A DNA stretch of 64,000 bases from Candidatus Bathyarchaeota archaeon (lineage in GTDB: Archaea; Thermoproteota; Bathyarchaeia; Bathyarchaeales; Bathycorpusculaceae): the NCBI GenBank assembly GCA_963775685.1, contig CAVZJV010000014.1, forward strand, positions 512,001-576,000, read 5' to 3'. Shown piece after piece: positions 44,456 to 64,000 of this stretch (positions are counted from its first letter, which is position 1; each line of letters begins with the position of its first letter). A program made the position numbers and the translations under genes. The notes beneath the pieces were generated by a model, which was not told the DNA's origin, searched no databases, and was given only the letters and a program-made list of their open reading frames with translations.

Positions 44456-44456
44456 T

Positions 44457-44747
44457 TCATGCGCCCTGGTTGCCTCGTTTCAGGGCTCGGTATGCTTGGA
44501 TTTCGTCCAGAATCTCTTGTTCGGAGGGTTTCTTTTTTCCTTTGTTTTGCTGGTCGATTTCTTCGAAAAGATCCTTGAGCTCGACTAGTGGAGGGATTTT
44601 GAGTTTTGTCACGACAAGTTTGTCGTCTCTGCGATAAACAACGAGTTTCGTGTTTGGGGTTATGGCGAGTTCTCTTCTGAAGCGTTGAGGAATAACGATT
44701 TGCCCTTTGGTTCCGACGACTGCAACGTCTGACTCTTCTTGACCCAT
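44457..44747 (-). CDS. AbrB/MazE-type antitoxin
   Basis: VGTKGQIVIPQRFRRELAI; directly upstream of the PIN gene. Confidence 0.92.
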   Translation of the reverse strand: MGQEESDVAVVGTKGQIVIPQRFRRELAITPNTKLVVYRRDDKLVVTKLKIPPLVELKDLFEEIDQQNKGKKKPSEQEILDEIQAYRALKRGNQGA

Positions 44748-44775
44748 ACTGATCACAGTATAACTTTCATACTGT
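44746..44775. promoter_or_regulatory. Probable TA operator: ATACTG / CAGTAT / ATACTG half-sites
   Basis: Inverted repeats overlapping the antitoxin start. Confidence 0.55.
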
Positions 44776-44826
44776 ATCCAGATAAAGGTTACCCCACAGG
44801 AACACAAAAAGGAAGAGAGGGGATGT

Positions 44827-45036
44827 TTACTGCTTGTTGACTTTACTCTTCCAGTAAAGCAGAATCGCACCCGCCACAGTGGATGCTAACACAATCGCCG
44901 GAGCCTTAATCTCCAGCGGAATCGGCAAAGAAGCAACAAACGTAGTAGCAGCGCCCGCAACTGTGCCAGCTAAAACGATTAGAGCTTCCTTATTTTCAGA
45001 TACCTCTATCTCATTAACCAAACAAATCACCTCCAA
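44827..45036 (-). CDS. Small two-TM membrane protein (holin-like)
   Basis: Two hydrophobic helices and a basic C-terminus (YWKSKVNKQ). Confidence 0.5.
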   Translation of the reverse strand: MEVICLVNEIEVSENKEALIVLAGTVAGAATTFVASLPIPLEIKAPAIVLASTVAGAILLYWKSKVNKQ

Positions 45037-45376: not shown

Positions 45377-45586
45377 TTAGCCGGCAACTAAGGCTGCTTG
45401 GAGATTGTTTAGGTCTACTGGATTTGTAAGTATAATGTCAATGTCTTTGGTTGCAACTTTTAGGCCATAAAACGCCATGGCGCCGCCGCCGATCAAGTAA
45501 AGCGCAATAGGTCGTCCTGCTATTGCGTTTAGTCTATCGAATTCTTGCTTAAGGTAGTCTTTGTTAAAGGAGCGTCTTTGAGCCAT
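45377..45586 (-). pseudogene. Truncated nucleotidyltransferase (DUF6036/AbiEii-like toxin)
   Basis: LYLIGGGAM...ATKDIDI, then a stop at 69 aa. Confidence 0.8.
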
Positions 45587-46533
45587 TAAGCCATCACTCC
45601 ATAATCACGGGCTTTATCAACAAAGTCATCCCAAGTAGGTAGCGGCTGCCCTTCAAGACGAATATGAGTTTGCAAGAATTCAAGCATGCCCTTTACTTGG
45701 TTCTCTAGCCCAAAATGCTCAGCTTCCCTGATAAGGTATGTTTTGTCGATTTGTTTTTCCGTTTTTTTAAGCAGCAACAGAGCGTAAGTTGAATAACGCA
45801 CATTGCCCGGCTCCAACAAAAGCGTATGCAAAACAGCATCCTCAAGCTTGATCGTCTCCTTTGTGGTTGAATAGAAGTAAACATCAAATTCTGAGAAAAG
45901 CGGCAGATCATACTCAGAGAAAATTGAGGTTGCGGTTTTGTGGAAATCTCCAGTTGGCGCCTCTGCAGAATTAGGTACTCGAACCAGAAATTCCATGCCC
46001 TTTTGCCAAAGGATAACAGAGTTTTCAGAGAGCGTCTTGGAAATCTTGTTAACAAAATATCGCTCGTATTCTTTTAGGAAATCTGCGAGTATCTGGAAGC
46101 GAGTGTTGATTATGTATCTTTTCTGAGTTTCTGCGATTATGCCTCTTGCTTTTAGTTCTTTGAGGTAACGCCAAAGTGTAGCGCCTGAAAACCTTGATAA
46201 GTCGCCATCATCGAGGATTTTGAAAAGGATTTCGATTGATTTTCCACTAAGTATGTTTTCCCAATCCATAAAATCATAGGAGAGCAAAAGATCCCTAAGT
46301 AGAGCAGCATGCTTTGTCTCGCTATAACCAGCGAGCTTTCTATTGCCTGATTCACTTGTTTGGATTAACCCTTTTTTATTCAATTTTTCCAAAGTATATG
46401 AAAGAAGCGCAGATTTAAGCGATAGTAACTTCTTGATCTCCGGCAGAGATTGATTACCTTTAGCAAGCTCTTTGAGCAACTGTAATTCTGTTTTGCCTAA
46501 AGTGTAATCTGGATCGGAATGTCTCATACTCAT
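45586..46533 (-). CDS. Tandem wHTH protein, putative type IV TA antitoxin/regulator
   Basis: Two HTH regions and C-terminal LPTWDDF..KA.DY; coupled to the NTase gene. Confidence 0.75.
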   Translation of the reverse strand: MSMRHSDPDYTLGKTELQLLKELAKGNQSLPEIKKLLSLKSALLSYTLEKLNKKGLIQTSESGNRKLAGYSETKHAALLRDLLLSYDFMDWENILSGKSIEILFKILDDGDLSRFSGATLWRYLKELKARGIIAETQKRYIINTRFQILADFLKEYERYFVNKISKTLSENSVILWQKGMEFLVRVPNSAEAPTGDFHKTATSIFSEYDLPLFSEFDVYFYSTTKETIKLEDAVLHTLLLEPGNVRYSTYALLLLKKTEKQIDKTYLIREAEHFGLENQVKGMLEFLQTHIRLEGQPLPTWDDFVDKARDYGVMA

Positions 46534-46578
46534 TTCATATTATTGAAAACCTATTTAAGCATTTTAAAAATATGAAAT
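46532..46578. promoter_or_regulatory. Inverted repeat ATTTCATATT...AATATGAAAT flanking a TATA box
   Basis: 10-bp perfect arms upstream of the antitoxin-like gene. Confidence 0.5.
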
Positions 46579-47704: not shown

Positions 47705-48650
47705 ATGATAGACTTGAGCCGACTCGAAATAGGTGCAGGCAAAGCAGGCGCAAGGGAAAAATTCGAACGGCTCATCGCACGATTAATTAAGTTACAGTTT
47801 TACGATGCCCAAGAGGTTAAGCCGAACCCAGGCGATTGGGGTATCGACGTATACATCGGGAAATTTACCTCAGGAGATATTACTGTTTGGCAGGCAAAAT
47901 ACTTTCCAGATGGTGTAGATGATTGCCAAAAAGACCAAATTCGTAGATCTTTCAATCAAATAGTTGATAAGTCAAAAGAGAAAAGTTTCTGCGTTAATGC
48001 CTGGATTCTTTGTATCCCAAGTACTCTTGATGGAGACAGCAAAATTTGGTGGGAGAAATGGGCTAGCACAAAACAAAAGGAGACAGGGATATCTATTAGG
48101 TTGAAGGAACGACTTGAGATCGTTACTATGCTTCAAACACCTGAAGCTCACCCGCTTTGTATTGAATTCAATCTCGCAGACCGGACGGAACTTTTGATGG
48201 AAGAGAGAACAATTGAGCCTCTTCCATTGAAGGAAAGTTGCGAATATGATCATTCTTTCTTTATTTTAAAGCTGCTTGCTGCGGGAATAACAGAAACTGA
48301 ACCTGCAAAAAAGCAGTTTTTTAATGCAGAAATAGTCTCAAAAGAAATACTAGATAAAAAGGATAAATTTGAGCTTGCTGAATTGAACGGACTTTATGAT
48401 AAAATTCATGATTTATGGTCAACGAGATTTATTGAAGCAATGCAAAGTCAAAATGCTGAAGCAGAAACTAGACGAATTTATCCCAACCATGCTCAGACTC
48501 ATTGAGGAAAAGAATAATGAGTTATTATACTGCCATAGACTACCTATTTCTTTCTTCCATAAGAAGGGGCTAATGCAGCAAATGGCAGACATTTGTACCG
48601 TGGGATGGACCCCTGACTACAAAAGCTTGAGTAAGAAGGTGTCAATCTAA
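47705..48650 (+). CDS. ABC-three-component/Lamassu effector (LmuA-like): Mrr-like PD-(D/E)xK nuclease + C-terminal domain; 1-bp insertion at about 48483
   Basis: Motifs EKFERLI, GDWGIDVY, VWQAKYF. Removing one C from TATCCCA fuses both ORFs (314 aa). Confidence 0.8.
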
Positions 48651-49219
48651 TGCCGCAACATACGAATTCCGATTGGAAGAGTAGATTAACGTTTACTGCT
48701 GAGGATGACCTGGTGTTCAACTCTGCAAGGTTATTATTGCTTTTTGATGAACTTTCCAAATTGAGCAAACAGGGTGTCGATATTGAAAGGTTATCTTATT
48801 ATGATTTTTTTGCGGCTAACCCTTTTGTTATTCTTTCAGAAAATGACCCTTCACGTTTAGACTTTGAGTTAGAGGGGTTTGAGCCAAACAAATTAGAATA
48901 TACAAGTTCAGCGCAGAGATACAGTTCGAAACGAGAATCAATAAAGCACTATTTAGCGCTGCTACTTGCAAAAGGGCTCATAGACGTTTCTAATCAGGAA
49001 GGCAAAATAATTTTCGTTATAACCGAAAGAGGTTCTTCCACAGTCAACAAAATAAATACGATTTATGCAATAGCCTATAGGAAAAGCGTTGGCTATATTA
49101 TTAAACGCTTGAAGGATTATTCCGACAAAAAATTATGGGAATGTTCAAGAAAGTGGTTAGAGGCTAAAGCGTTCCAAATTGACCTTTATGGCACTATCGG
49201 AGAGAATTTGAATGAATAG
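48650..49219 (+). CDS. ABC-3C middle component (LmuC-like)
   Basis: ARLLLL...LSYYDFFAANPF...LLAKGLI...ITERG; overlaps both neighbours. Confidence 0.78.
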   Translation: MPQHTNSDWKSRLTFTAEDDLVFNSARLLLLFDELSKLSKQGVDIERLSYYDFFAANPFVILSENDPSRLDFELEGFEPNKLEYTSSAQRYSSKRESIKHYLALLLAKGLIDVSNQEGKIIFVITERGSSTVNKINTIYAIAYRKSVGYIIKRLKDYSDKKLWECSRKWLEAKAFQIDLYGTIGENLNE

Positions 49220-51134
49220 AATAATAATAAGCAAAATTACCGGCAAGAGTGTTGAAAAGGACTATTCTGTTCAATTCAAGCGCGGGTTAAACATAATTGC
49301 TGGTGAAAGTATGACCGGCAAAACATCAATTTTGCAACTTATTAATTATTGCTTCGGAGACTCTGAGTACCCACAAACGCTCGAATTCCAGAAACTGATT
49401 GTCGCATTGTTGGAAATAGAGATAGATGAAGAGTTTTTCACAATTGAGAGAGTCCTTTCAAGAAAAAAAACGGCAACGATACATTTCTGTAAGATAGAGG
49501 ATTTAAGAATCAGTCATAAGTCCATTGAAGTGAATGTTTCTATTTCGAATGATGAGGAATCGATCAGTAGTTTTATTCTTTCAAGGATTGGGCTAGAAGG
49601 AGTTGAACTAAAGAAGGCACCTACACAGGAAGCTTCTGAAACAAACACTCTGAGTTTTAGAGACCTATTATGGGCCTGTTACTTAAAGAGAAGTCGAGTT
49701 GGAGGAGAGCAACTGCTTTTTGAAAATGAATACTGGAAAAATAATAAGCTCATTCAAATTGTGGACATAATATTCAATGTTTATTCCAATACGGCAGCAT
49801 TGCTAAGTTCTGATTTAGAATCGCTCAATAATGAAATAGATGCAAACGAACAAAAAATGAAAACAATTCTAAATTTCCTTGATTCGCAAGGGGTACTTCA
49901 GCCTGAAGAGCTTGCGAAAGAATCTACTAAATTAGCATCTGACACGTCATCCCTTAAAAAACGCTTGACAACAATAGATGAGGCATTAACTGGTAGTTCA
50001 GATACAGCAAAGGGTCTCAGACACGAGGTATTAGGACTTCAAGCCGTCCTCCAAAGAATCAAGACTGATAAAAGAAGCATGGAAAAGAATCTTTTGCTAT
50101 TATTGCCGCTCAGGTCACAATATCATGAGGATATTAAGAAATTAACATTTCTAAACGAAGCCAAAGAAATCTTCGACCCTCTTCTAATTCTTCGCTGCCC
50201 TTATTGCCTAAGACCTTTAGAAAAAAACGCTGAAAACCATAACTGTTGTCCACTATGTAAAGAAGAAATAAATCAAATAAGTACTGAGTCGAAGGTCGAT
50301 GTGACTAAGGAAATAGGAATTATTAAGCGCAAATTAGACGAATTAAACGTTTACATTGAACAAGTAGAAATGAGGATCAAAGAGAATGAAGTTCATGAAA
50401 AGAGCACATCTGAACGATTGGCGTACCTCAGCAAACAGCTGGATGAATCCCTTGAAAGTTTTGTCAGCCCATATTTATCCGAGAGAGACGAATTAAAAAC
50501 CTCAATAATTACCAATGAAAACAAGATTGCAACTATTGACCAATCACTTAATTTCAGAAATCAAATAAAATTCATCGAAGAGGAAATAATCTGTCAAAAA
50601 ATAAAAGCAGAGAAGCTTAAATTAGAAATTAAGAAGGAAAGGACAAAGTCCGTAACGCGAATAGAGTTGATCAATTCTTTAAGCGCTTTGTATCGTCAAC
50701 AACTGAACGAGATACACTTCCCCAAGTTGGATAACGACGCCAGAATCGACGAAAAACTAATTCCTTATGTTAAAGGATTAAAATACGATAAGTTATCAAG
50801 CGAAGGTGCAATCAATCTCTCCTCAATTTGTTGGATGACAACGATTTTTGAGGAAGCGATAAAACGGTCAATGCATCATCCCGGTTTCCTAATGCTTGAT
50901 TACATACAAGCAGGAATTGGTATAGGTCCAGAAATAAAAGAGGAATTTCAAGATGTTGCTATTGTGAAGGGTCTTTATGATGTTCTTCTAGACGTTTCTC
51001 AATTAGATTCAGAATGTCAAGTAATTGCAATCGATAATCATCCACCCGATTATGCTAAAGACTATGTAATCGTTCGCTACACCAGAGACCCTAAGAAATA
51101 CCCTTACGGATTCATCGACGACGAGACAACTTAA
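49212..51134 (+). CDS. SMC/Rad50-like ABC ATPase (LmuB-like)
   Basis: Walker A GESMTGKT, coiled coils, CPYC/CPLC hook, signature SSEGA, Walker B FLMLD. Confidence 0.88.
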   Translation: MNRIIISKITGKSVEKDYSVQFKRGLNIIAGESMTGKTSILQLINYCFGDSEYPQTLEFQKLIVALLEIEIDEEFFTIERVLSRKKTATIHFCKIEDLRISHKSIEVNVSISNDEESISSFILSRIGLEGVELKKAPTQEASETNTLSFRDLLWACYLKRSRVGGEQLLFENEYWKNNKLIQIVDIIFNVYSNTAALLSSDLESLNNEIDANEQKMKTILNFLDSQGVLQPEELAKESTKLASDTSSLKKRLTTIDEALTGSSDTAKGLRHEVLGLQAVLQRIKTDKRSMEKNLLLLLPLRSQYHEDIKKLTFLNEAKEIFDPLLILRCPYCLRPLEKNAENHNCCPLCKEEINQISTESKVDVTKEIGIIKRKLDELNVYIEQVEMRIKENEVHEKSTSERLAYLSKQLDESLESFVSPYLSERDELKTSIITNENKIATIDQSLNFRNQIKFIEEEIICQKIKAEKLKLEIKKERTKSVTRIELINSLSALYRQQLNEIHFPKLDNDARIDEKLIPYVKGLKYDKLSSEGAINLSSICWMTTIFEEAIKRSMHHPGFLMLDYIQAGIGIGPEIKEEFQDVAIVKGLYDVLLDVSQLDSECQVIAIDNHPPDYAKDYVIVRYTRDPKKYPYGFIDDETT

Positions 51135-51333: not shown

Positions 51334-53922
51334 GTGTCTGGAAAAAGTCCTTTTCGACGGATAGAAGTCAAGAGCTCGCAATCTTGCGACATCGAATCCT
51401 TATTTAAAGATCTAAAGAATAGATCCGCGGATATCAAGGAGTTATTTGCTCCACAAGCGGATGTTCTTAGAGATTATCAGAAGAACTATATCGATGCGAA
51501 AGATGTCAGTATTGAACTCCCAACTGGTTCAGGAAAAACACTTGTTGGTTTGCTTATTGCAGAATACCGCCGAAGAATCTTAAAAGAAAGAGTTCTTTAT
51601 CTTTGTCCAACCAAACAATTAGCATACCAAGTAGGTAATAAATCCGTAGAATACGATATTCCCGCGAAAGTTTTAGTTGGTTCAAAATACGAATTCAGCC
51701 GTCCTGACTCTATTGCTTATCATTCAGGAGCTACGACCGCAATATCGACTTATAGTGGTCTTTTCAACATTAATCCAGAATTTAATGACGCCCAAACTAT
51801 AATTCTTGATGACGCTCATGGTGGAGAAGGTTATATCTCCTCACCGTGGTCTATGACGGTTGATCGGGAAAAAGACCCTGAGGTATATGCACACCTAATT
51901 TCAACTTTTGAGAAAGACATGCCAACGCTATCTATCCTTTATGGTGAGAAACCCAAAAGGCTACCTAAGGTTGAAAAAATCCCTTACGCAATTTTTTTCA
52001 ATCATATTCCCGAACTTGTTGGAATCTTTAACACAGAACTAAGGGAAAATACTTCTAACTCTTACTCGTGGCAGTTTGTTAAAGAGGGACTGCATGCATG
52101 TCATGCATACATCTCATGGGACGAAATTTATTTACGCCCATATATCCCGCCTTCCCTTAGACATAGACCCTTCTCCGATGCAAAACAGCGTATCTACATG
52201 TCTGCCACATTAGGTAGCGGTGGAGAACTAGAACGAATAACTGGAGTAAACCAAATTAGTCGAGTTCAAACACCTAACACTTATCTCAGGCATGGGATTG
52301 GACGTAGACTCTTTCTATTTCCTGACATTGTAACCGAAGAATCCGAATATGAGTCATGGCTTGTCAAACTAATCGCCGCTTCCAAGAGAACATTAGTTCT
52401 TTGCCCGAATGGACGTGCGTTAACCAATCTAAAACAATTGCTGCAAAAAAGTGAAACATCTATACAAATACTTGGAGCATCTGACATAGAAAATTCCTTG
52501 GATCCCTTCATAAACTCAGAGTCAGTGGTTCTGGCACTAACAAATAGATATGATGGGATTGATATACCGAGTAAACTATGCAGGGTTCTAGTGATGTATG
52601 GCTTACCTACAGGTACAAATCTCCAGGAAGTGTTCCTAGAAGATAAGTTAGGATTGGATGTACTTCTCCGTGAAAGAGTGAAGACCAGAATTGCACAGGG
52701 CACAGGACGCTGCACAAGAAGCGCTACCGATCAATCTGCCGTAGTAATGGCTGGAAGACGCTTACTAGATTTTTGTATTAAGAATGAGAATCAAAGGATG
52801 TTTAACCATGAGTTACGGGGAGAAATGAACTATGTGCTTCAATTGAAGCTCACCTCTGTTGCTGACTTGGACTTGATGCTAAAATCATTCTTCCAAAAAG
52901 ATGAAGATTGGAATATGGCGGAAGAAGAGATAGCAAAGATTCGGGATTCTGATGAAAAACTTGATACAACAGTATCTGAAATTCTTGCTACAACAGTTGC
53001 AAGCGAAGTAAACTTCTCTTATGATTTCTGGTTCGGAAGATTTAAACAAGCCGTTGAAAGTGGTATTTCAATAACCGATAAACTTACCGATTCGCGACTT
53101 TCATCGTATCGTGCATTTTGGCATTACTTAACAGCCTGCGCTGCATTCGCTGCGTCTAAAGATAATCCCGACTTCATAGCCATTGCTGAAAAACAGATGA
53201 GTCGAGCAATAAAGACATGCAAAACTGTTTCATGGTTTGCAAGCGCTTTGAAGCCAATGTTACCAGTTGAAAAAGTTAGGGCAGTTGCAAACGAACTTGA
53301 AACGCTCGCTACCGAGGGAATAGCTGATGTTTTGAAAGATTTGGGATCCAGAGGTCCTGGGTTCCCAAGAAAGATGGAGGAAGTGGAGAAATTACTCGGG
53401 GAAAAGAAGCACTCAAGTTTCGATAGGGGTATGGTAGAGTTAGGACTTTTGCTTGGTTTTAACGCATGGAAAACTGATGCTCAAGCTACACCAGACTGTA
53501 TTTGGCAACTTGGCAATGAAATTGTGTATCTATTCGAAGGCAAATCAGAGGAAACCACAGAAGACCCCATTTCGGTTGATGATTGCAGACAAGCTGCTGG
53601 ACATTTAAAATGGGCAAGCGCTGATCCCCAACTCAAAAATTGCAAAGCTTTCAGAAGTATCCTCGTTACGCCGAGAACTACAATTGACAAGAATGCAGTG
53701 CCTCACGCTAACAATCTGTTTTTTATGACACCTTCAGATATGCAATCACTATTTGAGCGAGCAAAAGCTATGCTCACTGCAGTTAGAACCGTTATGATAG
53801 ATGAAGCGGATGAAGAATTTAAGGAAAAAATCATTTCCGAACTAATCAAAAACGACCTGACGCCGACTTCAATTCAAGCCATACTGCAAGCTAAGTCTGT
53901 TGATGATCTAAAGAAAATGTAA
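51334..53922 (+). CDS. SF2 (DinG-like) helicase with C-terminal PD-(D/E)xK nuclease-like domain
   Basis: Motifs PTGSGKT, DDAH, MSAT, YDGIDIP..CR, QGTGRCTR; C-terminal PDCIW...FEGKS. Confidence 0.88.
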   Translation: MSGKSPFRRIEVKSSQSCDIESLFKDLKNRSADIKELFAPQADVLRDYQKNYIDAKDVSIELPTGSGKTLVGLLIAEYRRRILKERVLYLCPTKQLAYQVGNKSVEYDIPAKVLVGSKYEFSRPDSIAYHSGATTAISTYSGLFNINPEFNDAQTIILDDAHGGEGYISSPWSMTVDREKDPEVYAHLISTFEKDMPTLSILYGEKPKRLPKVEKIPYAIFFNHIPELVGIFNTELRENTSNSYSWQFVKEGLHACHAYISWDEIYLRPYIPPSLRHRPFSDAKQRIYMSATLGSGGELERITGVNQISRVQTPNTYLRHGIGRRLFLFPDIVTEESEYESWLVKLIAASKRTLVLCPNGRALTNLKQLLQKSETSIQILGASDIENSLDPFINSESVVLALTNRYDGIDIPSKLCRVLVMYGLPTGTNLQEVFLEDKLGLDVLLRERVKTRIAQGTGRCTRSATDQSAVVMAGRRLLDFCIKNENQRMFNHELRGEMNYVLQLKLTSVADLDLMLKSFFQKDEDWNMAEEEIAKIRDSDEKLDTTVSEILATTVASEVNFSYDFWFGRFKQAVESGISITDKLTDSRLSSYRAFWHYLTACAAFAASKDNPDFIAIAEKQMSRAIKTCKTVSWFASALKPMLPVEKVRAVANELETLATEGIADVLKDLGSRGPGFPRKMEEVEKLLGEKKHSSFDRGMVELGLLLGFNAWKTDAQATPDCIWQLGNEIVYLFEGKSEETTEDPISVDDCRQAAGHLKWASADPQLKNCKAFRSILVTPRTTIDKNAVPHANNLFFMTPSDMQSLFERAKAMLTAVRTVMIDEADEEFKEKIISELIKNDLTPTSIQAILQAKSVDDLKKM

Positions 53923-54400
53923 TTTCTTTTCCATTCCGCTTCTAACCGGAAGATACAATCTAACGATTCCTATTTGATCTCTAAATATCGATCTTATCGT
54001 TAGTAAGTTTGTAGTTGGAGAGAGCAAGAGTATGAACATAGTTGTTTTCCAATATTGAAGCAAAATCTCAAATGGTCATTTTTCCACTGATCGGAAGAAC
54101 AACATCACGCTAAAATTTCAGTTGTTGTTCTTTTGTTAGTGCAAGATTACGTTGGAAGAAGAAAAAATCGGATTTAACCCAATGCAATTTTTTCTTCTCC
54201 TGAAAGAAGACAGAAACGTGTGCAGATTGTTGCCTTCTTCTTTTTATCACTTAAACGGGCAAGATGTTGTTTGAAAGAAGAAGAACGGGCTTTTCTGTAG
54301 CAATTAGCCGTTTTTCTTCTTCTAATACTCGTAATATTGGAGCTCCATTTCGATCCAGCAACAACTTCTGCTATTATCAGGCATTCGAACAATTTTGCTC

Positions 54401-55345
54401 TTAAGGTTGACCACTGAAGAGGTTGACCATTTTATTTGAGGGAACTACTTCTTGAAGAATGACCGAGGCGACGTGAGAGAAAAATCTGCGTAGAACTTCG
54501 TTTTGACTATCTTCTTTTGCCTTTGGGATGTGGTCTGACATTAAGAATTTGTAGGCAAAGTTTTCCGCGAATGCTTGCCTCCAAGAATCATCCCTGGTAG
54601 AAGATTTGCTATCAATAATCAATTCACTTAGTCCCTTTTGGGTTTCTTTGAGTTGTTGGCTTAGAATGAAAAGTTGATTGTAATTATTTGCATCGCCACT
54701 TCTCTGCTCCATGCTTCTTTGGGTCTCATCCTCTTGGTCAGATTGAGCAGTCCATTTCAACTGACTTACTTTTTCCGTTACATCTTCTATTTTTTTCCCA
54801 ACGAACGCTAGCTCTGTTGAGGTATGAGGGGGGACAGCCTCTAAAACCTGGGCAGAATGTAATATATCGTATAAGACTGAATGCCCAAAATGATTGACGA
54901 GCCAGGGTATTTCTTCGAAAAGGGGATAATCTAGCCTTTTTCCCCAGTCTTCTAAGACGTGCGTGAGCTTCTCAAATTCGTCTAAATGCTCAACTATGAA
55001 TTGTTCTTGAAACTGCTCTCGGGCCTTGCGTATGTCTTCAAGTGATCGATTTTTAAACAGTTTTAGGGCTTCTATGCCGTTTAGGGGATTAAGATGAATC
55101 GTGTTAAGGTATAATATTGCACCCCGGAAGGTTAGGTGGAACAGTTTCTTTTTTCGCGGGTTTTCGTTTGAGTCATTGAAGGGAGTTAGGTAGCCTTCTT
55201 GGTGGAGTTTGTTGAGGCAGAAGTGGATTGTTCCGCGGCTTATTTTCTCTAGTTGTTTTTGCTTGTAGAGATCATATTCAGTTTGTGGACCTTGTTGCGC
55301 AATAAGGGCTAGTATAGAGTGGGTTTTTGGGTTTTTCTTTAGCAA
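54401..55345 (-). CDS. N-terminal wHTH protein (element regulator)
   Basis: ILALIAQQGPQTEYDL...LNKLHQEGYL...KLFHLTFRG. Confidence 0.7.
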   Translation of the reverse strand: MLKKNPKTHSILALIAQQGPQTEYDLYKQKQLEKISRGTIHFCLNKLHQEGYLTPFNDSNENPRKKKLFHLTFRGAILYLNTIHLNPLNGIEALKLFKNRSLEDIRKAREQFQEQFIVEHLDEFEKLTHVLEDWGKRLDYPLFEEIPWLVNHFGHSVLYDILHSAQVLEAVPPHTSTELAFVGKKIEDVTEKVSQLKWTAQSDQEDETQRSMEQRSGDANNYNQLFILSQQLKETQKGLSELIIDSKSSTRDDSWRQAFAENFAYKFLMSDHIPKAKEDSQNEVLRRFFSHVASVILQEVVPSNKMVNLFSGQP

Positions 55346-55439
55346 TATCTCAGTGACCTATGTGATATCTAAAAGATACTTCCTTAAATAATTTTCTCGC
55401 ACTATTATCACAGTAAGCACTGAGATGTGAAGAAGTGAA

Positions 55440-55715
55440 ATGAGCATACCCAAAATCGTGGAACACAAAATAATAAAAATGCGAAAACGCGACGGCACAA
55501 CACAATACACACTAACGCTTCCCAAAGAGTTCGCCGAAGCCTTAACACAAGAAGGAATCGATTCTCTATACATTGTTTTCAACAGAGGACTCGGAGCTTT
55601 CCCAAAGATTCCAGGCTTCACCGAAAAAGCATTAACCACATTTCTGCAGGAACACCAAGCACTCCAAAAACTCTTCACCAAAACTACTGAAACCGATTTA
55701 ATTATTCAGAAATAA
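55440..55715 (+). CDS. AbrB-like small DNA-binding protein
   Basis: QYTLTLPKEFAEAL. Confidence 0.65.
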   Translation: MSIPKIVEHKIIKMRKRDGTTQYTLTLPKEFAEALTQEGIDSLYIVFNRGLGAFPKIPGFTEKALTTFLQEHQALQKLFTKTTETDLIIQK

Positions 55716-55733
55716 GAAGGAAAGAAAAGAGAA

Positions 55734-56183
55734 ATGGCTGGACTAACCGAGGAAACTCAGGATATATTTGGCAAGGCCGATAGCAAATCCTGCCTAAATG
55801 AAAACACTAGCCTAGACCCATTACAGCCACTGATTTTTGTTCGCTACCGCGACCATGTCCTGTACAATCGTGCCTCTGCTGTTTTGATGCAACCACAGAT
55901 TAGAGAAGCTGTAGGCTGGCTAATCTACGAAGCCGATCAATACATTATTCTTTCCTGGGATAGGGATGCAGACCCACCAACACTTCATGGTGGCGACCCG
56001 AAAGCCTCAGGTCTTGTTCTCCTAAAGTCAGACATTGTTCGATCGATTAAGTTCTATCCGCATCTTCTTCCAAATCTAGAATTGAATTTAAAAAGTAAAC
56101 AATCCATACATGCAGATGAGTCTGCGTTCCGACGACCATCGGAGCGAAAAACTCACTCCTCAAAAGGAGAAAAAACAAAATGA
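55734..56183 (+). CDS. Integrase-associated conserved protein (copy 1)
   Basis: VRYRDHVLY...REAVGWL...GLVLLKSDIV; homologous to 59142-59582; ATGA overlap with the integrase. Confidence 0.8.
   Translation: MAGLTEETQDIFGKADSKSCLNENTSLDPLQPLIFVRYRDHVLYNRASAVLMQPQIREAVGWLIYEADQYIILSWDRDADPPTLHGGDPKASGLVLLKSDIVRSIKFYPHLLPNLELNLKSKQSIHADESAFRRPSERKTHSSKGEKTK
56087..56179 (+). promoter_or_regulatory. Internal TATA box and structured leader of integrase 1
   Basis: TTTAAAAA at 56087; hairpin GAGT-CTG-CGTTCCGA-N6-TCGGAGCG-AAAA-ACTC; CTCCT/AGGAG hairpin over the SD. Confidence 0.6.
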
Positions 56184-57607
56184 TCGAAAAGACCCTTTTA
56201 GCCCCCGCTATAACCCGCAACCATCAACTTTCCCTTGAAGAAATAAAAAGCCTCAACCTCCCCATGACATTCCAAGGCGACCAAGTTGTAATCTACACAA
56301 GCTTAACCGGCTGGAAACTCAAAAAACCCGTAACCATAGAACTCAAAAACATCTTAGATGCTAAAGAAAAAGGCCTCGTCGACTACATCATCAGATCCTG
56401 CCTAAACGACCGCCCCGGCGTAATTGCTTTTTTATTCGAGAACCAAAGCATGCTAAAACTCGCTCGCCACTTTCTACGCCATCTCTCAGGCTCCTACAGA
56501 AGCTGCTTAACCTACTCCGTCAACGTCAAACGATACGCGACTTGGCTAGGCTATACGCCTGACTTAATTATCCAAGACGTCAAACCTGTCGGCGCAATCC
56601 CAGACCCCATAAAAGTACAGAACCACTGTGGATTCCTAAACGACTACCTCGCCGAACTACAAGACGACGACCTCAAACCAGCAGCAGTAAACAACTACAT
56701 CAAAGCTGTCAAAACCTTCTACCACGTAAACGGAATCGACGTCAAACTCACAGAACGCCTATCCCGAAAAGTCGCCTACAAAGACCGAGCCCCAAAACCC
56801 GAAGAAATCACAACCATGCTCGATAAATCAGCTACTCGCGAAGCCTTTATCATTGCAGCCTTAGCAACAGGTGGATTCCGAGAAGGAACATTTTGTAAAC
56901 TAAAATACCGACACGTAAAAGAAGACCTCGAAGCTAACAGAATTCCCATACACATACACGTAGAAGCCGAAATCACCAAAGGAAAATACCACGACTACGA
57001 CACCTTCATCAACACTGAAGCAAGCAACCTGCTGAAAATGTACATCGCCGACAGAAGACGAGGCATCAGATATACTCCGCCAGAAGAAATCACCGACGAC
57101 TCACCTTTAGTTCGAAGTGATCACCAAGCACACAAAGTGGTCGGTATCAGCGAAAAAACGCTGCGAAAAATCGTGCACACAATCGCTGTTGAAGCTGGCG
57201 TCTCAAAGAAACTGCCTGACAGCTGGATGTACAGTGTAAGAACCCATAGCCTGCGAAAATACTTTAGAACCCAGATGAGTGCCTCAAAAATCGATAGCGA
57301 AATCATCAAATATTTCATGGGCAAAACCATCGACACTTATGAAGACGTCCAAAGCCTAGGTATTGAAACCCTAAGAAATCTCTACACATCTGCAGGATTA
57401 GCGATTAGACCGAAAACTCAGACCAATAGAATTGAGCAGTTTAAAGAAATCTTACGCGCCATGGGAGAGAACCCTGAAGAAGTCTTATCTAAGGATGCTT
57501 TGATGCGGGGAAATATAACTGAGCTCCCAGAAATATACCAGAATCATCAGTTATCGATTCTGGCTCAGCAGCTTAAGCAGCTGATTATGAGGGAGGTCAG
57601 GGTTTAG
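56180..57607 (+). CDS. Tyrosine recombinase/integrase 1
   Basis: Motifs GFREGT, HSLRKYFR, FMGK..DTY; SAM-like N-terminal domain. Confidence 0.93.
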   Translation: MIEKTLLAPAITRNHQLSLEEIKSLNLPMTFQGDQVVIYTSLTGWKLKKPVTIELKNILDAKEKGLVDYIIRSCLNDRPGVIAFLFENQSMLKLARHFLRHLSGSYRSCLTYSVNVKRYATWLGYTPDLIIQDVKPVGAIPDPIKVQNHCGFLNDYLAELQDDDLKPAAVNNYIKAVKTFYHVNGIDVKLTERLSRKVAYKDRAPKPEEITTMLDKSATREAFIIAALATGGFREGTFCKLKYRHVKEDLEANRIPIHIHVEAEITKGKYHDYDTFINTEASNLLKMYIADRRRGIRYTPPEEITDDSPLVRSDHQAHKVVGISEKTLRKIVHTIAVEAGVSKKLPDSWMYSVRTHSLRKYFRTQMSASKIDSEIIKYFMGKTIDTYEDVQSLGIETLRNLYTSAGLAIRPKTQTNRIEQFKEILRAMGENPEEVLSKDALMRGNITELPEIYQNHQLSILAQQLKQLIMREVRV

Positions 57608-57702
57608 TGAACGAAAAAACTGGTAGTTTTTTCGCGTTAATATTGGCGCCGCCGAAAGGTTCCGCGGCTTATAAGCTGAACTTATACTAGACTTTTGCGA
57701 AG
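57608..57702. other. Putative recombination/attachment region with a dif-like core TATAA-GCTGAAC-TTATA
   Basis: Inverted repeats at 57612-57634, 57634-57649, 57648-57668 and 57670-57686. Confidence 0.5.
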
Positions 57703-59145
57703 TCACCGTTGATTTGTGACCTCCCTACGTATGATATTCTTAAGTTCCTCGGCTAAGATCGAGAGTTGGTGCGTCTGATTCTGCTCAGAATTAACGGTTA
57801 TGTTTCCTCTGATAAAGGCGTCTTTGCTTAAGATTTCCTCGGGGTTCTCTCCCCAAGCGCGAATTATTTCTTTGAGTTGGTCTATGCGGTTAAGTTTCGT
57901 CTTAGGTCGGATTGCTAAGTTCGCTGCTGCGTACATGTTTCTGAGTGCGTCTATTCCGAGGCTTTGAACGTCTGCGTAGGTGCTAATGGTGTGCCCCATC
58001 ATATACTCGACGATTTCTGATTCGATTTTTGCTGCAAGTAACTGAGATTTGAAGAACTTTCTTAGGCTGTGGGTTCTTACGGTGTACATCCAACTATCTG
58101 CTAGCTTTTTTGCTGTGCCTGTTTCGACAGCTACTTTGTGAACGATTGCTCGTAGCTGTTTTTCGCTTATGGGTTCAACTCTGTTAGCGTAATGAGTGCT
58201 TCTTATGAGCGGTGCGTCGTCGGTGATTACTTCAGGGGGAGTGTATTTTGAGCCGTGGCGTCTTTCTTGGATGTAGAGTTTTAAGAGTTGGCAGGCTTCG
58301 TTGTTTAGGAAAGTGTCGTAGTCGTGGTATTTTCCTTTGGTAATTTCGGTTTCTATATGGACATGAATTGGGACCACGCCTGCTTCTAGGTCTTCTTTGA
58401 CGTGTCGATATTTGAGTTTGCTTAAGGTTCCTTCTCTGAAGGCTGCGATTGCAAAGGCTGCTATGATGAAGCTTTCTCTTGTGTCGGACTTATCTAGCAT
58501 CGCTGCGATTTCTTCGGGTTTTGGCGCTCGGTCTTTATTCTCAACTTTTCTGCTAAGCGGTTGGTCTAACTTGACTGTTTTTGCTCCGTTAACGCGATAA
58601 AAGCTTCTTACGGCTTTCATGCAGTTGCTTATTGCACCGGCTGAAAGTCCTGCATCTTGAAGGTCAGCTAAGTAGTCGTTGATAAAAGCGCAGTGGTTTT
58701 GCACTCGTTGCGGATCGGGGATTGCTCCAACTGGCTTTAGGTCGACGATGATTTCGTCGGGTTTGTATCCGAGCCAAGTTGCGTATTTTTTGACGCCGGC
58801 TGAGTAGTTTCGGCAGCTTGAGAAGGACTTTGAGCAGTTGCGTAGAAAGTGGCGCGCTAGTTTAAGGAGAGTTTTGTTTGCAAAAATATAAGGGATCAGT
58901 GCGGGTTGCTCTCTTATGCAGCCTCTAATAACGTAGTCTACGAGTCCTTTTTCGCCTGCTTCTAAGACGAGGTTTAATTCGATAGCTATGGGTGTTTTGA
59001 GTTTCCAGCCGTTGAGGCTTTTTTCGATTATAACGAGGTTTCCTTGAAACATCAGCGGAAGTCCGAGGCTTTTTAGATCTTCGATGGTTAAATCACGGTT
59101 TCGAGTTATAGCTGGGGCTAACTGTCTAGTCTTATGTTCAATCAA
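57703..59145 (-). CDS. Tyrosine recombinase/integrase 2
   Basis: Motifs AFREGT, HSLRKFFK, MMGH..STY; end-to-end homologue of integrase 1. Confidence 0.93.
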   Translation of the reverse strand: MIEHKTRQLAPAITRNRDLTIEDLKSLGLPLMFQGNLVIIEKSLNGWKLKTPIAIELNLVLEAGEKGLVDYVIRGCIREQPALIPYIFANKTLLKLARHFLRNCSKSFSSCRNYSAGVKKYATWLGYKPDEIIVDLKPVGAIPDPQRVQNHCAFINDYLADLQDAGLSAGAISNCMKAVRSFYRVNGAKTVKLDQPLSRKVENKDRAPKPEEIAAMLDKSDTRESFIIAAFAIAAFREGTLSKLKYRHVKEDLEAGVVPIHVHIETEITKGKYHDYDTFLNNEACQLLKLYIQERRHGSKYTPPEVITDDAPLIRSTHYANRVEPISEKQLRAIVHKVAVETGTAKKLADSWMYTVRTHSLRKFFKSQLLAAKIESEIVEYMMGHTISTYADVQSLGIDALRNMYAAANLAIRPKTKLNRIDQLKEIIRAWGENPEEILSKDAFIRGNITVNSEQNQTHQLSILAEELKNIIRREVTNQR

Positions 59146-59582
59146 TGTTTTTTCGCTCCTTTCTGGATTTTGGAGCTGAGTTTTTCGCTTCTTTGGCTAG
59201 GAGCGCATACTCGATTCTTTAGTAAAGTGGATGGACAATTTAAAACATGCTCAAAATTTAGAAGCGCCATGGAAACAATGCAGCTTTTAATAACCACCAC
59301 GCCGTTAAAACCGCTACGGCACTCTGGAAGAGGCCTATCACACTCGATAAGCATAACATCATCGTTCTCTTCCTTAACCCAGCCTATTGCTTCCCGTATG
59401 ATTGCTTCAGCAGCAGGTGTCTCAACGTTTCTAAAAAACACATGGTCTCTGTACCTAACGTAAACAGCTTTGAGGATTTGGGAGCTATCGCCAGCTGATT
59501 CGCCAAAACATACACCGTTCAGGCTAACTTCATTGGTGCTCTTCATTGAACCTGTAGCGAGATCAGCCATTTCCTCCCACAC
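59142..59582 (-). CDS. Integrase-associated conserved protein (copy 2)
   Basis: VRYRDHVFF...REAIGWV...GVVVIKSCIV. Confidence 0.8.
   Translation of the reverse strand: MWEEMADLATGSMKSTNEVSLNGVCFGESAGDSSQILKAVYVRYRDHVFFRNVETPAAEAIIREAIGWVKEENDDVMLIECDRPLPECRSGFNGVVVIKSCIVSMALLNFEHVLNCPSTLLKNRVCAPSQRSEKLSSKIQKGAKKH
59146..59245 (-). promoter_or_regulatory. Internal TATA box and structured leader of integrase 2
   Basis: TTTTAAAT at 59245-59238; hairpin GAGT-ATG-CGCTCCT-N6-AGAAGCG-AAAA-ACTC; GCTCC/GGAGC pairing over the SD. Confidence 0.6.
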
Positions 59583-59602
59583 CTCTTAATTTTATGGTTA
59601 GT

Positions 59603-59842
59603 TTACTTGTTTGGTTCTGGAATCTTTTCGAAGTTGACAAGTTCCCAGGGAATGTGTGCCACCAGTCCGCATCCGACATAGCGATAGAAACTTTCTGGAT
59701 CAACAAGGCTGGTGTTGCCTGTTTGCATTAAGCGGGGCTTTTGCATTTTTATGTGACATGCGCACGCTTCGCCTAGGCAATCGCTGTTTTCCTGTTGAGG
59801 GTGCGATGCAGCTAAGGGACAAACCTTACGAGGCTCCATCAT
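59603..59842 (-). CDS. Small Cys-rich (putative Zn-binding) protein
   Basis: KVCPL...CLGEACAC...GCGL. Confidence 0.65.
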   Translation of the reverse strand: MMEPRKVCPLAASHPQQENSDCLGEACACHIKMQKPRLMQTGNTSLVDPESFYRYVGCGLVAHIPWELVNFEKIPEPNK

Positions 59843-60051
59843 GGTCTCTCCTTCGCTAATGCTGTTTCCTCAGCCGTATCAAAGGTCACGGCTGGAAATG
59901 GCGCCTTGGGTCGTTTATGGGTTGCCTTGTATGCTTTGAGTCCTTGTTTGAGGATTTCATTTGCGAATGCGCTTCGGGTTGCTAGGTCCCTGTAGGCGTC
60001 TATTTCTTTTAGGACCGCTTGATCGATGGTGAAGGCGACTTTTGCTTTCAT
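59839..60051 (-). CDS. Ribbon-helix-helix protein
   Basis: KVAFTIDQAVLKEID...RSAFANEIL. Confidence 0.8.
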   Translation of the reverse strand: MKAKVAFTIDQAVLKEIDAYRDLATRSAFANEILKQGLKAYKATHKRPKAPFPAVTFDTAEETALAKERP

Positions 60052-60071
60052 TTCTCTTAATTCCCCTCGTG

Positions 60072-60112
60072 GTTAACTTAGTTAACTCCGTTACTATGGG
60101 TAACCTTATAAA
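60072..60112. promoter_or_regulatory. Repeated GTTAAC/GTTAC/GTAAC boxes next to TATA between divergent RHH genes
   Basis: Four boxes at 9-10 bp spacing. Confidence 0.5.
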
Positions 60113-60156
60113 TCTAATCCTACTAATCATACTTCTGTTCACAGGAGAAAAACGGC

Positions 60157-60576
60157 ATGAAAGCGATAAAAATCTCAGACGACATCCACAGCAAACTAAC
60201 CGGTCTACTAGGCGAGCTCACCGCTGAGACTAATAAAATGCAAACTTACCAGGACGCCATAAACGCTCTCCTAGAGCAGTCAGTTATTCTTCCGCCTGAA
60301 GTCATTGCCAAAGTGGAAAACTTCATTGAAGAAAACAAAGATACAGGCTTCACCAACAAAGAGGACTTTGTCCGTGATGCTATACGCTACAGGCTTGAAC
60401 GATTGAAAACCGACAATGAATGCATTGAAGTTTCTCGCGAACAATATAACGAACTCGACGAAGCCCTAAAGGAAATGGGAACACCCTTCCACAGTCCAGA
60501 GCAATTCATACACAGCCAAATATCCGATATCATCTACAAATACGATGAATACAAGAAAAACAAGCAATATCCTTAA
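60157..60576 (+). CDS. Multi-RHH/CopG-like regulator
   Basis: KAIKISDDIHSKL...TYQDAI; VILPPEV...GFTNKEDFVRDAIR. Confidence 0.8.
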   Translation: MKAIKISDDIHSKLTGLLGELTAETNKMQTYQDAINALLEQSVILPPEVIAKVENFIEENKDTGFTNKEDFVRDAIRYRLERLKTDNECIEVSREQYNELDEALKEMGTPFHSPEQFIHSQISDIIYKYDEYKKNKQYP

Positions 60577-60639
60577 TCAAACCACTAGCAGACAAGCCTT
60601 ACAAGAATTGTTTCTAAGGATGAGACAAAGAAGTTGAGG

Positions 60640-60891
60640 TTGATAATTCAGGGTGTCAAAAGCTACATTCACATAAAGGAGGATTATCTGTTGCCGATGC
60701 GGCGGTTAGAATCAGAGACGCTCTCAGAATGGAAACACCTAGCCGTATCATGGAAAATACAAATAAGCAGAGCCCAAACTCCATAGGACAAAGTCAAATG
60801 CGAAAACCTGCTAAGCAGTACCCAAGAGCACATCAAACAATTCATCGAAGCCGGCGTCAAAGAGGTTAAAGAACTCAAGGAATTCGATTGA
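60640..60891 (+). pseudogene. Small helical hypothetical ORF interrupted by one in-frame TAG (60784)
   Basis: Manual translation LIIQGVKS...RAQTP*DKVKC...KEFD. Confidence 0.4.
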
Positions 60892-61028
60892 ATTTGTCTA
60901 TGTTAAAAAAGAAATAGGCACTTTATTTAGATTGAATCGTTAGCTGATGAGGCTGAGCGGCAGATAAAAAAAATGCTTCACAATGATTAATTAATCGAAG
61001 CAATAAACCTTAAGCTACAATGTTGGTA

Positions 61029-62543
61029 CTAGTAGTAAACCTGTGGATACTTCCCTGCGATAGGGTAAGCTGGGTCGTCATAGACAATGTCTAGTTTTGA
61101 GCCGTATTGGGTGAGTCTACTCTGTAGTTGTGTCCAGATTTGCTGGGAAGTACCGTTTGCAGCCCACACACCCCAAACACTATCTTGTGGATTACGCATG
61201 CCCCATCCATAGTTTCTGGGCAAAACAAGGGCTGCTTGAGCTTTAATGCCATCACGGATTACAGTGGTGTTTTGGACTACTTCATTCCAGAAGCGTTCTA
61301 ATGCTTGGAAATGTTCCGCTTGCAGGGTTCCGTATGGTCCTGTCATACTATCTGCATAATTGAATAATACGACATATTGAGCCCCATTTTCGTAGGAAGT
61401 TTTCATGTCTTCGAAAATTTCATTTCCATCCGCAAGATATGGGGCTTGTGTGTATTTCCATGTCAAGATCGTTCCCCAGTTTTTGCTCTGTAGATTTGCT
61501 GCGCCGCGCGCTAAGGCGATTTCTTGGGCAACCGAATTGTTCCAGCCTAACTGTGCAAGAACCATGTCGTATCCGCTCTTATAATCCCACCAGTAAAGAC
61601 CATAATCAGAGGTAAAAATTGGAAAATCCCCTTTGCTTATGTTACATTGATTTCTCAAATTATCTATGGGTCCTTTGGTTTTGGCTATAAAGAGATTTGT
61701 TGCGGCATTGTAATCAGGTATTGGGTTGTCGCTCTTTATTTGCAGGTAAGTTTTTTCTTGAGCTATGATATCTGAGCCATTTTCTATTGTATAGAAATTA
61801 TCTCTCAGTACTTGGTAAGAGTGACCTGCATCATGGTGGCCATAAGGTGAACCGCCTGTATATACTTTATTTATTGTGCTTGTGATCGTTTCTCTTAGAG
61901 TTACTGAGCCGTTTGGCTCATAAGTGGTCATGTTGGTGTTACTTAACGTGTTAGATATCGTTACAGAAGAATTGTTGGGGTCAAGCTCAAGGGAAAAGGT
62001 TTCATTGCTTTTTTTTACTTCAATTTTGCCGTCTGGAAAAAATGCTGTCCAACACCCATTATAATCAGAACAGTTTACGACGCCATCATTTAATTTATTG
62101 ATAAAAATTCCTTGATTCTCACCAAAATAGACGGAGCCATCAAGCATTTTGCCTCCAGGTTCATCTCCCAAATAGACTCCCACGAACATGCCTCCCCATC
62201 GTTGCTTGGCAGTTCCTATCCACTCCGCATTTTCGGCATTACCTATTACGTCAAAGTAAGCCGCAAAGTGTAATCCTTTAGATACCGCATAATCGCCTAT
62301 CTCGTTAACTGCAGAGGCATCATTCTTCAAAAGGCCTGACTGTAGCACAAAGAGGTTTGTGTAATTTGCGACTTTGTCAATTAGGGCTTTGGCGTCTTGT
62401 ATGCTGGTTCCGCCATAGGTTACTCCAGCGTAGAACGGTTGTTGTACTTTATGGTTTTCGATTAGACTTGTGTAGCTGATGAATGTGATCAAGCTTCCGC
62501 AGAGTATGCATATGATGGCTAATGAGAGGATTTTCCGGTTCAT
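61029..62543 (-). CDS. Secreted hypothetical protein, possibly glycoside hydrolase-like
   Basis: Signal peptide; YAGVTYGG, VYLGDEPGG, FTSDYGLYWWDY..GYD, WGTILTW, LPRNYGWGMR. Confidence 0.75.
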   Translation of the reverse strand: MNRKILSLAIICILCGSLITFISYTSLIENHKVQQPFYAGVTYGGTSIQDAKALIDKVANYTNLFVLQSGLLKNDASAVNEIGDYAVSKGLHFAAYFDVIGNAENAEWIGTAKQRWGGMFVGVYLGDEPGGKMLDGSVYFGENQGIFINKLNDGVVNCSDYNGCWTAFFPDGKIEVKKSNETFSLELDPNNSSVTISNTLSNTNMTTYEPNGSVTLRETITSTINKVYTGGSPYGHHDAGHSYQVLRDNFYTIENGSDIIAQEKTYLQIKSDNPIPDYNAATNLFIAKTKGPIDNLRNQCNISKGDFPIFTSDYGLYWWDYKSGYDMVLAQLGWNNSVAQEIALARGAANLQSKNWGTILTWKYTQAPYLADGNEIFEDMKTSYENGAQYVVLFNYADSMTGPYGTLQAEHFQALERFWNEVVQNTTVIRDGIKAQAALVLPRNYGWGMRNPQDSVWGVWAANGTSQQIWTQLQSRLTQYGSKLDIVYDDPAYPIAGKYPQVYY

Positions 62544-62635
62544 GGCAACTCACCTGTTTGAAGTTAAAACATATAAATAAAAAGAACGGTAAAAACGGTC
62601 AGAAAAAAACCGTTTTAGTCCGGGCTGAACAGGTA

Positions 62636-63352
62636 TCAACTGTGCCAGGTTCCAGTTTCAGAAGTCGCACTATGTGTGTAAGTTATATGAGGGTCTTGTC
62701 CAGAGTTCAGGATTGTATCTAAGCTAGCATCGTGCCACATATTACCCCAATCTTGATACTGAATTAAAGATGTAGTTCCAGCTGTAGATGGCGAGGTAGA
62801 CGCGGTCATTCCCCCTACAATATCCTCAAATGTTGTGACATATCTGTCACCATACCAAACTACTCCGTAGTCATATGTACCTGAACCGATATTATACCAA
62901 TTGGTTCCGCCGTCCAAGGAATATCTAAACAACCAAACGGTACTGCTGTTACCATTTCTTCCAGTGCATATCTTTATTTGACTAGAATCAAGATTCGAAA
63001 TTGAAATTGTTGTTGTTAGATCCGGTAGCACCCACTGACCGTTTGCTTGTCTCGCACCCGTAAAGAACAATGTTGAGGTTGAATCAGTTTGATACCAAGT
63101 TAAGTTAACCTCGGCAGTATAATTGTTAGTGCCGCTCGCAACTGCTATAGCGTCCCACTTTTGCATAGAACTACCAGCTTGATGGTGAACTGCTGAAGTC
63201 TCCATTACAGACGAATAGACTCCAGATACTCTATTTTGAAGATGATACCAACCGTAACAGTATGGTGTAGCTGACGCTGAGGAAACCAGCACTGAGGCCA
63301 TGATTATACAAAAGGTTCCTATCAACATACTTTTTTTACTCATTTTTTTCAT
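62636..63352 (-). CDS. Secreted beta-rich hypothetical protein
   Basis: Signal peptide (KK, hydrophobic core, ASA); T/S/W-rich. Confidence 0.7.
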   Translation of the reverse strand: MKKMSKKSMLIGTFCIIMASVLVSSASATPYCYGWYHLQNRVSGVYSSVMETSAVHHQAGSSMQKWDAIAVASGTNNYTAEVNLTWYQTDSTSTLFFTGARQANGQWVLPDLTTTISISNLDSSQIKICTGRNGNSSTVWLFRYSLDGGTNWYNIGSGTYDYGVVWYGDRYVTTFEDIVGGMTASTSPSTAGTTSLIQYQDWGNMWHDASLDTILNSGQDPHITYTHSATSETGTWHS

Positions 63353-63435
63353 TTTTTATTTTCCTCTTGCAAGTTATACTTGCAAGCTATGTCTTACTAA
63401 TCAAGTGATAGTTAATACCATGCACTAGGACAAAG

Positions 63436-63453
63436 TGTACTGAATTTAGTACA
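63436..63453. promoter_or_regulatory. Palindromic operator TGTACT-N6-AGTACA (second copy at 63859-63876)
   Basis: Near-identical palindromes upstream of two consecutive genes. Confidence 0.5.
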
Positions 63454-63492
63454 GACCTCTTGATTTTTAAGACGGCAAAAAATATATGATAC

Positions 63493-63792
63493 TTAGTAAT
63501 TAGCGCACGTTGAGTAAAATGGAATAGTTCTTATCTGTTTTGAGCAAGATTTTTTGATCTTTATCCAATTTATCAGAAAAACTGTTGCAACAATAATGAT
63601 TGCTAAAACAGCGGCTAAGCCTATCCAAAAAATTGCTACTATTATCTGGTTTAGCATTGAAGGTAATGGCATTGGGAGAGGCGTTTGGCTTGACTTGTTA
63701 GGGAAAAGAAGGTAACTTATTTCTAGTAGCAGAAGACTCAATAGTAAAGCGGCAATGGCTGCGAGCAGCATTTTAGTTTTTTGTCCAAACAC
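63493..63792 (-). CDS. Small two-TM membrane protein
   Basis: Two hydrophobic segments with a Pro-rich linker. Confidence 0.5.
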   Translation of the reverse strand: MFGQKTKMLLAAIAALLLSLLLLEISYLLFPNKSSQTPLPMPLPSMLNQIIVAIFWIGLAAVLAIIIVATVFLINWIKIKKSCSKQIRTIPFYSTCANY

Positions 63793-64000
63793 GATGTTTC
63801 CGAGCTATAGGATTTTTTGTCATTTATGAAAGTATAAGGATGTTATTTAACATTATATTGTACTAATTTCCGTACAGTTCTTTCATTATCCCTTAAGCAC
63901 TAAGAATAGTGGAGAGAATAAGAGCACTTAAATGTTAATATACCCTATTCCTTAGGGTAGTGGTGAAGACGGTTAACCGAAAAAGAACCATCTGATATCC

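Follow-up and report, generated by a model that had tools for sequence, protein, structure and literature searches.

Facing integrase genes in a Bathyarchaeia genome are probably explained by tandem integration of a provirus and a defence island at one tRNA-Asn gene

Elements or prophages that integrate in tandem at one tRNA gene share a core drawn from the 3′ end of the tRNA; copies of that core stand between them as direct repeats, and one end of the array retains the complete tRNA. SSV-type archaeal tyrosine integrases also target tRNA genes; the integrase gene itself contains the attachment site (attP) and is split on integration. Phage lambda Int is accompanied by Xis, a recombination directionality factor, and the XerC/XerD-dif system uses two paralogous tyrosine recombinases. 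Here, we analysed a 64,000-nt stretch of DNA (the window; G000:C14:512001-576000, where G000 is the source genome, a 3.06-Mb archaeal assembly) in which two integrase genes, intA and intB, converge on a short spacer. We consider it highly probable that provirus B, which carries intB, and defence island A, which carries intA, integrated in tandem at one tRNA-Asn(GTT) gene of this Bathyarchaeia (Bathy-6-like) genome. Site-specific tandem integration at a tRNA hotspot is a known kind of arrangement, and facing integrases are, on this account, nothing out of the ordinary for it. Labels beginning with G, L and C denote compared genomes, related loci from public genomes, and contigs, respectively.

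The mirror-image integrase arms around a short spacer that an earlier note on this DNA had described were recovered, with open reading frames (ORFs) at the positions given there. The features of the two arms and of the spacer are as follows (window positions, strand, description; wHTH, winged helix-turn-helix; RHH, ribbon-helix-helix; att, attachment site):

54272..57659 (+): integration module of island A, comprising regA, the 91-aa gene, partner A, intA, the arm and the core
54401-55345 (-): regA, divergent wHTH regulator (PadR, E 4.3e-5, under the cut-off)
55440-55715 (+): small gene of 91 aa, an ORF that is 98% conserved in L045
55734-56183 (+): partner A, conserved gene overlapping the intA start
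56180-57607 (+): intA, predicted tyrosine integrase of island A (475 aa; PF00589, 34.0 bits)
57608..57643 (+): int-proximal arm of island A; palindromic A6/T6 motif, 57613-57633
57644..57659 (-): att core, 16 nt, 3′ end of tRNA-Asn(GTT) including CCA
57660..57702 (-): int-proximal arm of provirus B; 13-nt inverted repeat, 57679-57691
57660..64000 (-): int-proximal portion of provirus B, the rest of which lies past the window, up to G000:C14:604839
57703-59145 (-): intB, predicted tyrosine integrase of provirus B (480 aa; PF00589, 37.8 bits)
59142-59582 (-): partner B, 33% identical to partner A
59603..60576 (mixed strands): regulatory cassette, made up of the next three genes
59603-59842 (-): Cys-rich gene, an ORF of 79 aa with 6 Cys
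59839-60051 (-): RHH-like gene, 70 aa (PHROG transcriptional repressor, E 2.2e-4)
60157-60576 (+): regB, divergent regulator, an ORF

The spacer between intA and intB is 95 nt long (57608-57702) and consists of the 36-nt arm of island A, the 16-nt core and the 43-nt arm of provirus B. The exact 16-mer was found twice in the 3.06-Mb genome, once in the spacer and once in a complete tRNA-Asn(GTT) gene (G000:C14:604840-604916) located rightward of the spacer, past the edge of the window. The two copies are direct repeats on the same strand, 35.2 kb apart, and bound provirus B (35.2 kb, window-equivalent 57660-92839); B is flanked by directly repeated tRNA 3′-end sequence, and one of its junctions holds the tRNA in full. 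This provides base-precise boundaries for a 35-kb tailed provirus of an uncultured Bathy-6 archaeon. The intB gene is located at the tRNA-distal end of B and reads outward toward the displaced core copy. The earlier note had suggested that two related elements landed at one hotspot in opposite orientations. The core repeat, the tRNA gene and single-arm copies elsewhere support two elements at one hotspot, namely the tRNA-Asn(GTT) gene located 35 kb rightward and not the spacer itself, whereas the opposite orientation was not upheld: the core copies are direct repeats, so the two elements have the same att polarity and only their integrase genes face each other. In A-type elements the integrase lies on the tRNA-proximal side of the core and in B on the distal side; starting from the tRNA, tandem integration then gives a core, B with its intB reading outward, a second core, and intA reading inward followed by the rest of A. 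The integrase genes are tail to tail because they occupy opposite sides of the shared core. The locus makes the same successive use of a tRNA 3′-end core as other tandem arrays at one tRNA gene, and differs from the usual head-to-tail array (e.g. the L092/L045 contig), in which the integrases point in the same direction. An SSV-type integrase was considered and rejected, as both genes have their full length and the core is not within the ORF but 36-43 nt past its stop codon; the likeness to that type is confined to archaeal tyrosine integrases with tRNA targets.

Between its two cores, provirus B is a tightly packed run of minus-strand genes, and its content indicates that it is a tailed (Caudoviricetes-like) provirus. 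It encodes a large terminase (phrog_979, 2e-91; Terminase_6C/6N), a tail tube protein (PF18906, 1.4e-16), an HK97-gp10-like neck or tail-completion protein (PF04883, 6.7e-10; phrog_5, 3.1e-22), and minor tail and tail proteins (phrog_290, 1.1e-16, is among the provirus matches), together with a ParB-like protein and DNA methyltransferases; these genes span C14:579860-604708. With perfect core repeats at both ends, B may still be able to excise. Elements of similar layout were found elsewhere: in L120, a 7-kb element follows the same plan of tRNA-Asn, integrase and then a perfect core repeat; in L142, a 33.6-kb IMG/VR viral contig, the integrase reads toward a same-sense tRNA-Asn core; and in G012:C10 an intB-like integrase is directly beside tRNA-Asn, with a syntenic right flank. 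The 13-mer of B's arm (57679-57691) recurs inverted at the far end of the provirus, 11 nt from tRNA-Asn, and the L089 and L092 integrases have a related motif after their stop codons. Two published accounts describe comparable viruses: a siphovirus-like provirus of 46.8 kb in a genomic island of a complete Bathy-6 metagenome-assembled genome (MAG), which like B has terminase, integrase and structural genes and a Bathy-6 archaeal host and differs from B (35.2 kb) in size (PMC11697101), and tailed Bathyarchaeia viruses with integrases (PMC10848311). The surface-protein genes that were said to adjoin the right arm are present and are located inside provirus B itself, where window 61029-63352 encodes 504-aa and 238-aa proteins of secreted or surface type; these belong to a multi-copy family across the genus, with 70-90% DNA matches in many genomes.

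Island A lies to the left of the spacer and includes, beyond its integration module, the following genes:

44048..44870 (-): PIN/MazE-like toxin-antitoxin pair (PIN_3, 1e-20; MazE_antitoxin, 3.6e-8), probably cargo located at the island's far end or close to it
45586..46533 (-): wHTH/HVO_2833_C regulator-like gene (Pfam HVO_2833_C, 8.1e-20)
47705..51134 (+): Lamassu, in the order LmuA, LmuC, LmuB (PADLOC 3e-55, 1.1e-44, 6.7e-166)
51334..53922 (+): DEAD/DinG-type helicase, candidate defence gene PDC-S28 (PADLOC 3.2e-110)

These matches confirm the defence cargo that had been noticed beside the left arm. LmuA, LmuB and LmuC were identified on three adjacent genes, in a region that also matches Pfam ABC-3C CTD8 and MC2, and the helicase matches Pfam DEAD (3.5e-16) and Helicase_C_2 (2.4e-10). 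The integration module of A (54272-57659) is 95.3% identical over 3389 nt to L045, a locus of another MAG in which an intA-type module stands alone and, 36 nt past the stop codon, enters a complete opposite-strand tRNA-Asn(GTT); the likeness between L045 and the window ends exactly at the last base of the 16-nt core. The intA module is directly beside a complete tRNA-Asn in L045, L046, L047 and L066, and the arm of island A is identical in L045 and similar in the other three. An A-type element of ~21.8 kb lies between two cores on the L092/L045 contig and has three pieces in common with the window, 44807-45141, 45383-46541 (93.6% identical) and 54272-57659. As the shared pieces flank Lamassu and PDC-S28, element A is taken to be a defence island of at least 12.8 kb, which places a Lamassu and helicase defence island at the same hotspot as the provirus. 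In a synteny search against five relatives, window 26-46 kb gave a patchwork of DNA matches. The PIN/MazE region (43843-45160) is 93-94% identical in G002 and G012, where most other shared stretches are ~70-87% identical; a partial copy of the pair is present inside provirus B (window-equivalent 67481-67731), and the copy in G012 is 4.4 kb from an integrase beside tRNA-Asn. Judged by these sequence matches, the pair looks horizontally mobile.

Several observations weigh against tandem integration as set out above. There is no second core bounding island A in the window with up to four mismatches allowed, other than core-like matches with 3-4 mismatches at 12588, 22399, 38893 and 43241, which are at chance level and one of which is in a long ORF. 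An 11-nt core match at 45478 was also considered as the far att of A and was rejected due to its position inside a Gly-rich coding stretch. The left end of A is therefore open and A is classed as an element by its homology to other loci; without a far core, it is probably no longer able to excise. Neither Pfam nor PHROGs recognised a portal or capsid protein in provirus B, where ORFs of 351 aa and 459 aa at the expected capsid and portal places are without a match in either. The nearest relatives of intB, in L089 and L092, carry the core in the opposite sense, so that the layout of B would be a recent change within its clade. Comparison of the 3′ sides of tRNA-Asn, taken from 12 relatives of which 11 were compared (one extends for only 274 nt), yielded no empty site: the flanks have scattered placements in G000 by tblastx, with no common flank, and the first bases past tRNA-Asn differ in each relative. 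Lastly, no public sequencing run contains the junction (the best run has a fraction of 0.18 of the sampled words), so the join is that of the assembly; contigs of four runs, with 88% likeness, do not bridge 57665-57795, and one X3 contig matches 57592-57659 and then departs from the window sequence.

The integrases themselves are predicted to be tyrosine recombinases. Both exceed the curated cut-off of 27.1 bits for Pfam Phage_integrase (PF00589) and match PHROG integrase families at E 1e-8 to 1e-12, and a PDB sequence search with intA gave no match. Both are intact and full length with all catalytic residues present: R234, K267/269, H356, R359 and Y387 are invariant in 73/73 aligned family members, and position 382 is H in 60/73 and K in 13/73, with intA among the K group. 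These catalytic roles are assigned by motif and, as Y387 is only five residues past position 382, the assignment of the nucleophile is provisional. In agreement with the earlier description of the integrases as homologous end to end and clearly diverged, intA and intB share 66% identity over 468 aa, including the motifs quoted there, and the regulators regA and regB, which had been called unrelated, have no cross-match in tblastn. The closest relative of intA, the L045 integrase, is 98% identical to it, and that of intB, the L089 integrase beside a tRNA-Asn, is 76% identical.

Family members were searched for in 41 genomes, 18 of which have a match at E<=1e-20, and in related loci from public genomes, for which the counts cover 80 of 164 confirmed stretches. 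Within 14-107 nt past the stop codon, a tRNA 3′-end match of at least 12 nt (both the tRNA set and this threshold being our choice) is present in 66 of the 82 integrase copies, 43 in sense and 23 in antisense orientation, and absent in 16. The targets are tRNA-Asn, -Lys, -Pro and -Arg, at their 3′ ends. On a quick IQ-TREE tree of 73 rows (nine copies that were truncated or contained stops were dropped), intA and intB belong to separate starred clades, and both target and orientation switch repeatedly (at least 27 changes). This defines a Bathyarchaeia integrase family with four kinds of tRNA target and, nearly always, an upstream partner gene, and its att cores and arms offer a means of locating the boundaries of elements in other Bathyarchaeia MAGs. 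The A6...T6 palindrome at 57613-57633 sits just past the intA stop codon; as each strand thereby has a T-run, it could serve as a transcription terminator for both convergent integrase genes. In most family members the stop codon is followed by related A-run/GTA/T-run motifs.

Three side observations concern the distribution of the family. A third family integrase is present in the source genome as a remnant (G000:C14:1176225-1176694), which is 47-53% identical, retains the C-terminal third only and has an in-frame TAG. Three family integrases lie within ~55 kb at L090, L102 and L122 (CAZWDU010000003.1), and this contig looks like an array of elements. Family integrases are often 0.5-3 kb from contig ends and point inward (G016:C5 at both ends, the start of G016:C6, L047, L065, L067, L073, L074, L076, L082, L084 and L087), which suggests that assemblies break at these elements because they are either repeats or variable insertions.

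Each integrase gene is overlapped at its start by 4 nt of its own upstream partner gene, and a partner homolog is directly upstream of the integrase in 74/80 related loci. The two partners align over 96 aa (33% identity, E 7e-13), and partner B is 77-90% identical to homologs in L054-L056, L060 and L091. No match was found for the partner protein in Pfam or PHROG, a Foldseek search with the partner model returned nothing at E<=0.001, and a search of the ESM Atlas returned only unnamed archaeal and viral clusters. The AF2 model of partner A (mean pLDDT 64) has a five-strand barrel at residues 33-107, and its VIA-align Z scores of 5-6.6 against Sm/LSm-like folds are in a range that is common among unrelated models; the modelled fold may weakly resemble an Sm/LSm-like barrel. 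As in lambda Int/Xis, the integrase gene has a small conserved gene coupled to it; in contrast to Xis, the partner has no Xis or helix-turn-helix signature, and the model hints at an Sm-like barrel instead. An unlikely elaboration is that island A is satellite-like, that the att region of the family flips relative to the integrase, and that the Sm-like partner is a new type of accessory factor. If this were true, A, which shares its att core and a related integrase with B-like proviruses, could be acted on by a helper integrase and its partner. Flipping of the att region, with the core flanked by the 13-nt inverted repeat, would explain how close relatives can have the core in either sense.

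The order in which the two elements of the tandem arrived was considered separately. Provirus B would have arrived second, landing between the tRNA gene and A, as suggested by its place between the two and its perfect core repeats. The reverse order, in which B integrated first and A then inserted into the core displaced by B, predicts the same final map, and only 16 nt of tRNA sequence are shared at the spacer; we regard it as quite improbable because single A-type modules (L045, L046, L047 and L066) adjoin a complete tRNA and not a bare core, and because A, having no far core, looks older than B with its perfect repeats.

The earlier note had offered, as its other explanation, a two-recombinase system in which intA and intB act together on the spacer as a XerC/XerD-like heteromeric pair. 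Such a pairing would fit two paralogous, intact integrases that converge on a short spacer holding a recombination core. However, each integrase type was found alone elsewhere, which is the observation that the note itself had named as fatal to this explanation: there is a single integrase of the intA/intB family within ±10 kb in 80/80 public-genome loci, and two adjacent copies on opposite strands are present in G000 and in none of the 40 other genomes. Each arm of the spacer is also present downstream of single integrases, and the partner of the core is the tRNA 35 kb away, not a second half-site. In the spacer, no dif-like paired half-sites around a 6-8 bp centre were found, and the inverted partner of the 13-mer is 35 kb off. 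Unlike XerC/XerD-dif, there is no obligate co-occurrence here and each integrase has its own tRNA-type att. A second tail-to-tail pair was found in another Bathyarchaeia MAG (L121:10001-13807), around a tRNA-Pro core, and consists of an integrase of the intA/intB family and a Zn-ribbon integrase of another family, the latter 55% identical over 430 aa to a Zn-ribbon integrase of G000 and with the same regulatory cassette beside it. This indicates that convergent integrases recur as a by-product of tandem integration and not as a dedicated two-enzyme system. Joint action of intA and intB is thus very improbable, and a tempting but wrong reading of the locus as a two-recombinase machine is removed.

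Misjoining of two contigs at tRNA-Asn cores, or a recent inverted duplication, has next to no probability: although independent reads do not bridge the spacer and integrases of the family often sit close to the ends of contigs in other assemblies, assembly of a 2.47-Mb contig would not be misled by a repeat as short as 16 nt, and integration predicts precisely the order tRNA, B, core, A. A recent duplication, against which the earlier note had also argued, is excluded by the identity of only 66% between the integrases and by the closer relative that each of them has elsewhere (98% and 76% identical).

Of the labels given earlier to the small genes and regulators of the two arms, two are weakly supported, wHTH for regA by the PadR match below cut-off and RHH for the 70-aa gene by the PHROG repressor match. 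Two others found no support, as neither the 91-aa gene, called AbrB-like, nor regB, called multi-RHH, has a Pfam match at E<=0.01; the 91-aa gene has no PHROG match either. The regulatory cassette next to partner B is also present in L050, L054-L056, L060, L091 and L121. It occurs twice more in G000 (C14:39135-41552 and C14:1512257-1514724), with 90-92% DNA identity, and after each of these copies come, in turn, a different integrase that has a Zn ribbon at its N terminus and an opposite-strand tRNA. The Zn-ribbon integrase at tRNA-Pro is split into two ORFs, and that at tRNA-Leu is intact (429 aa).

Elsewhere in the window, genes for fibrillarin, Nop5 and TrmB are present, and an ornithine/aspartate carbamoyltransferase gene (14345-15266) is split into overlapping ORFs for the N domain (14724-15266) and the C domain (14345-14743), which could be due to a frameshift or an assembly error.

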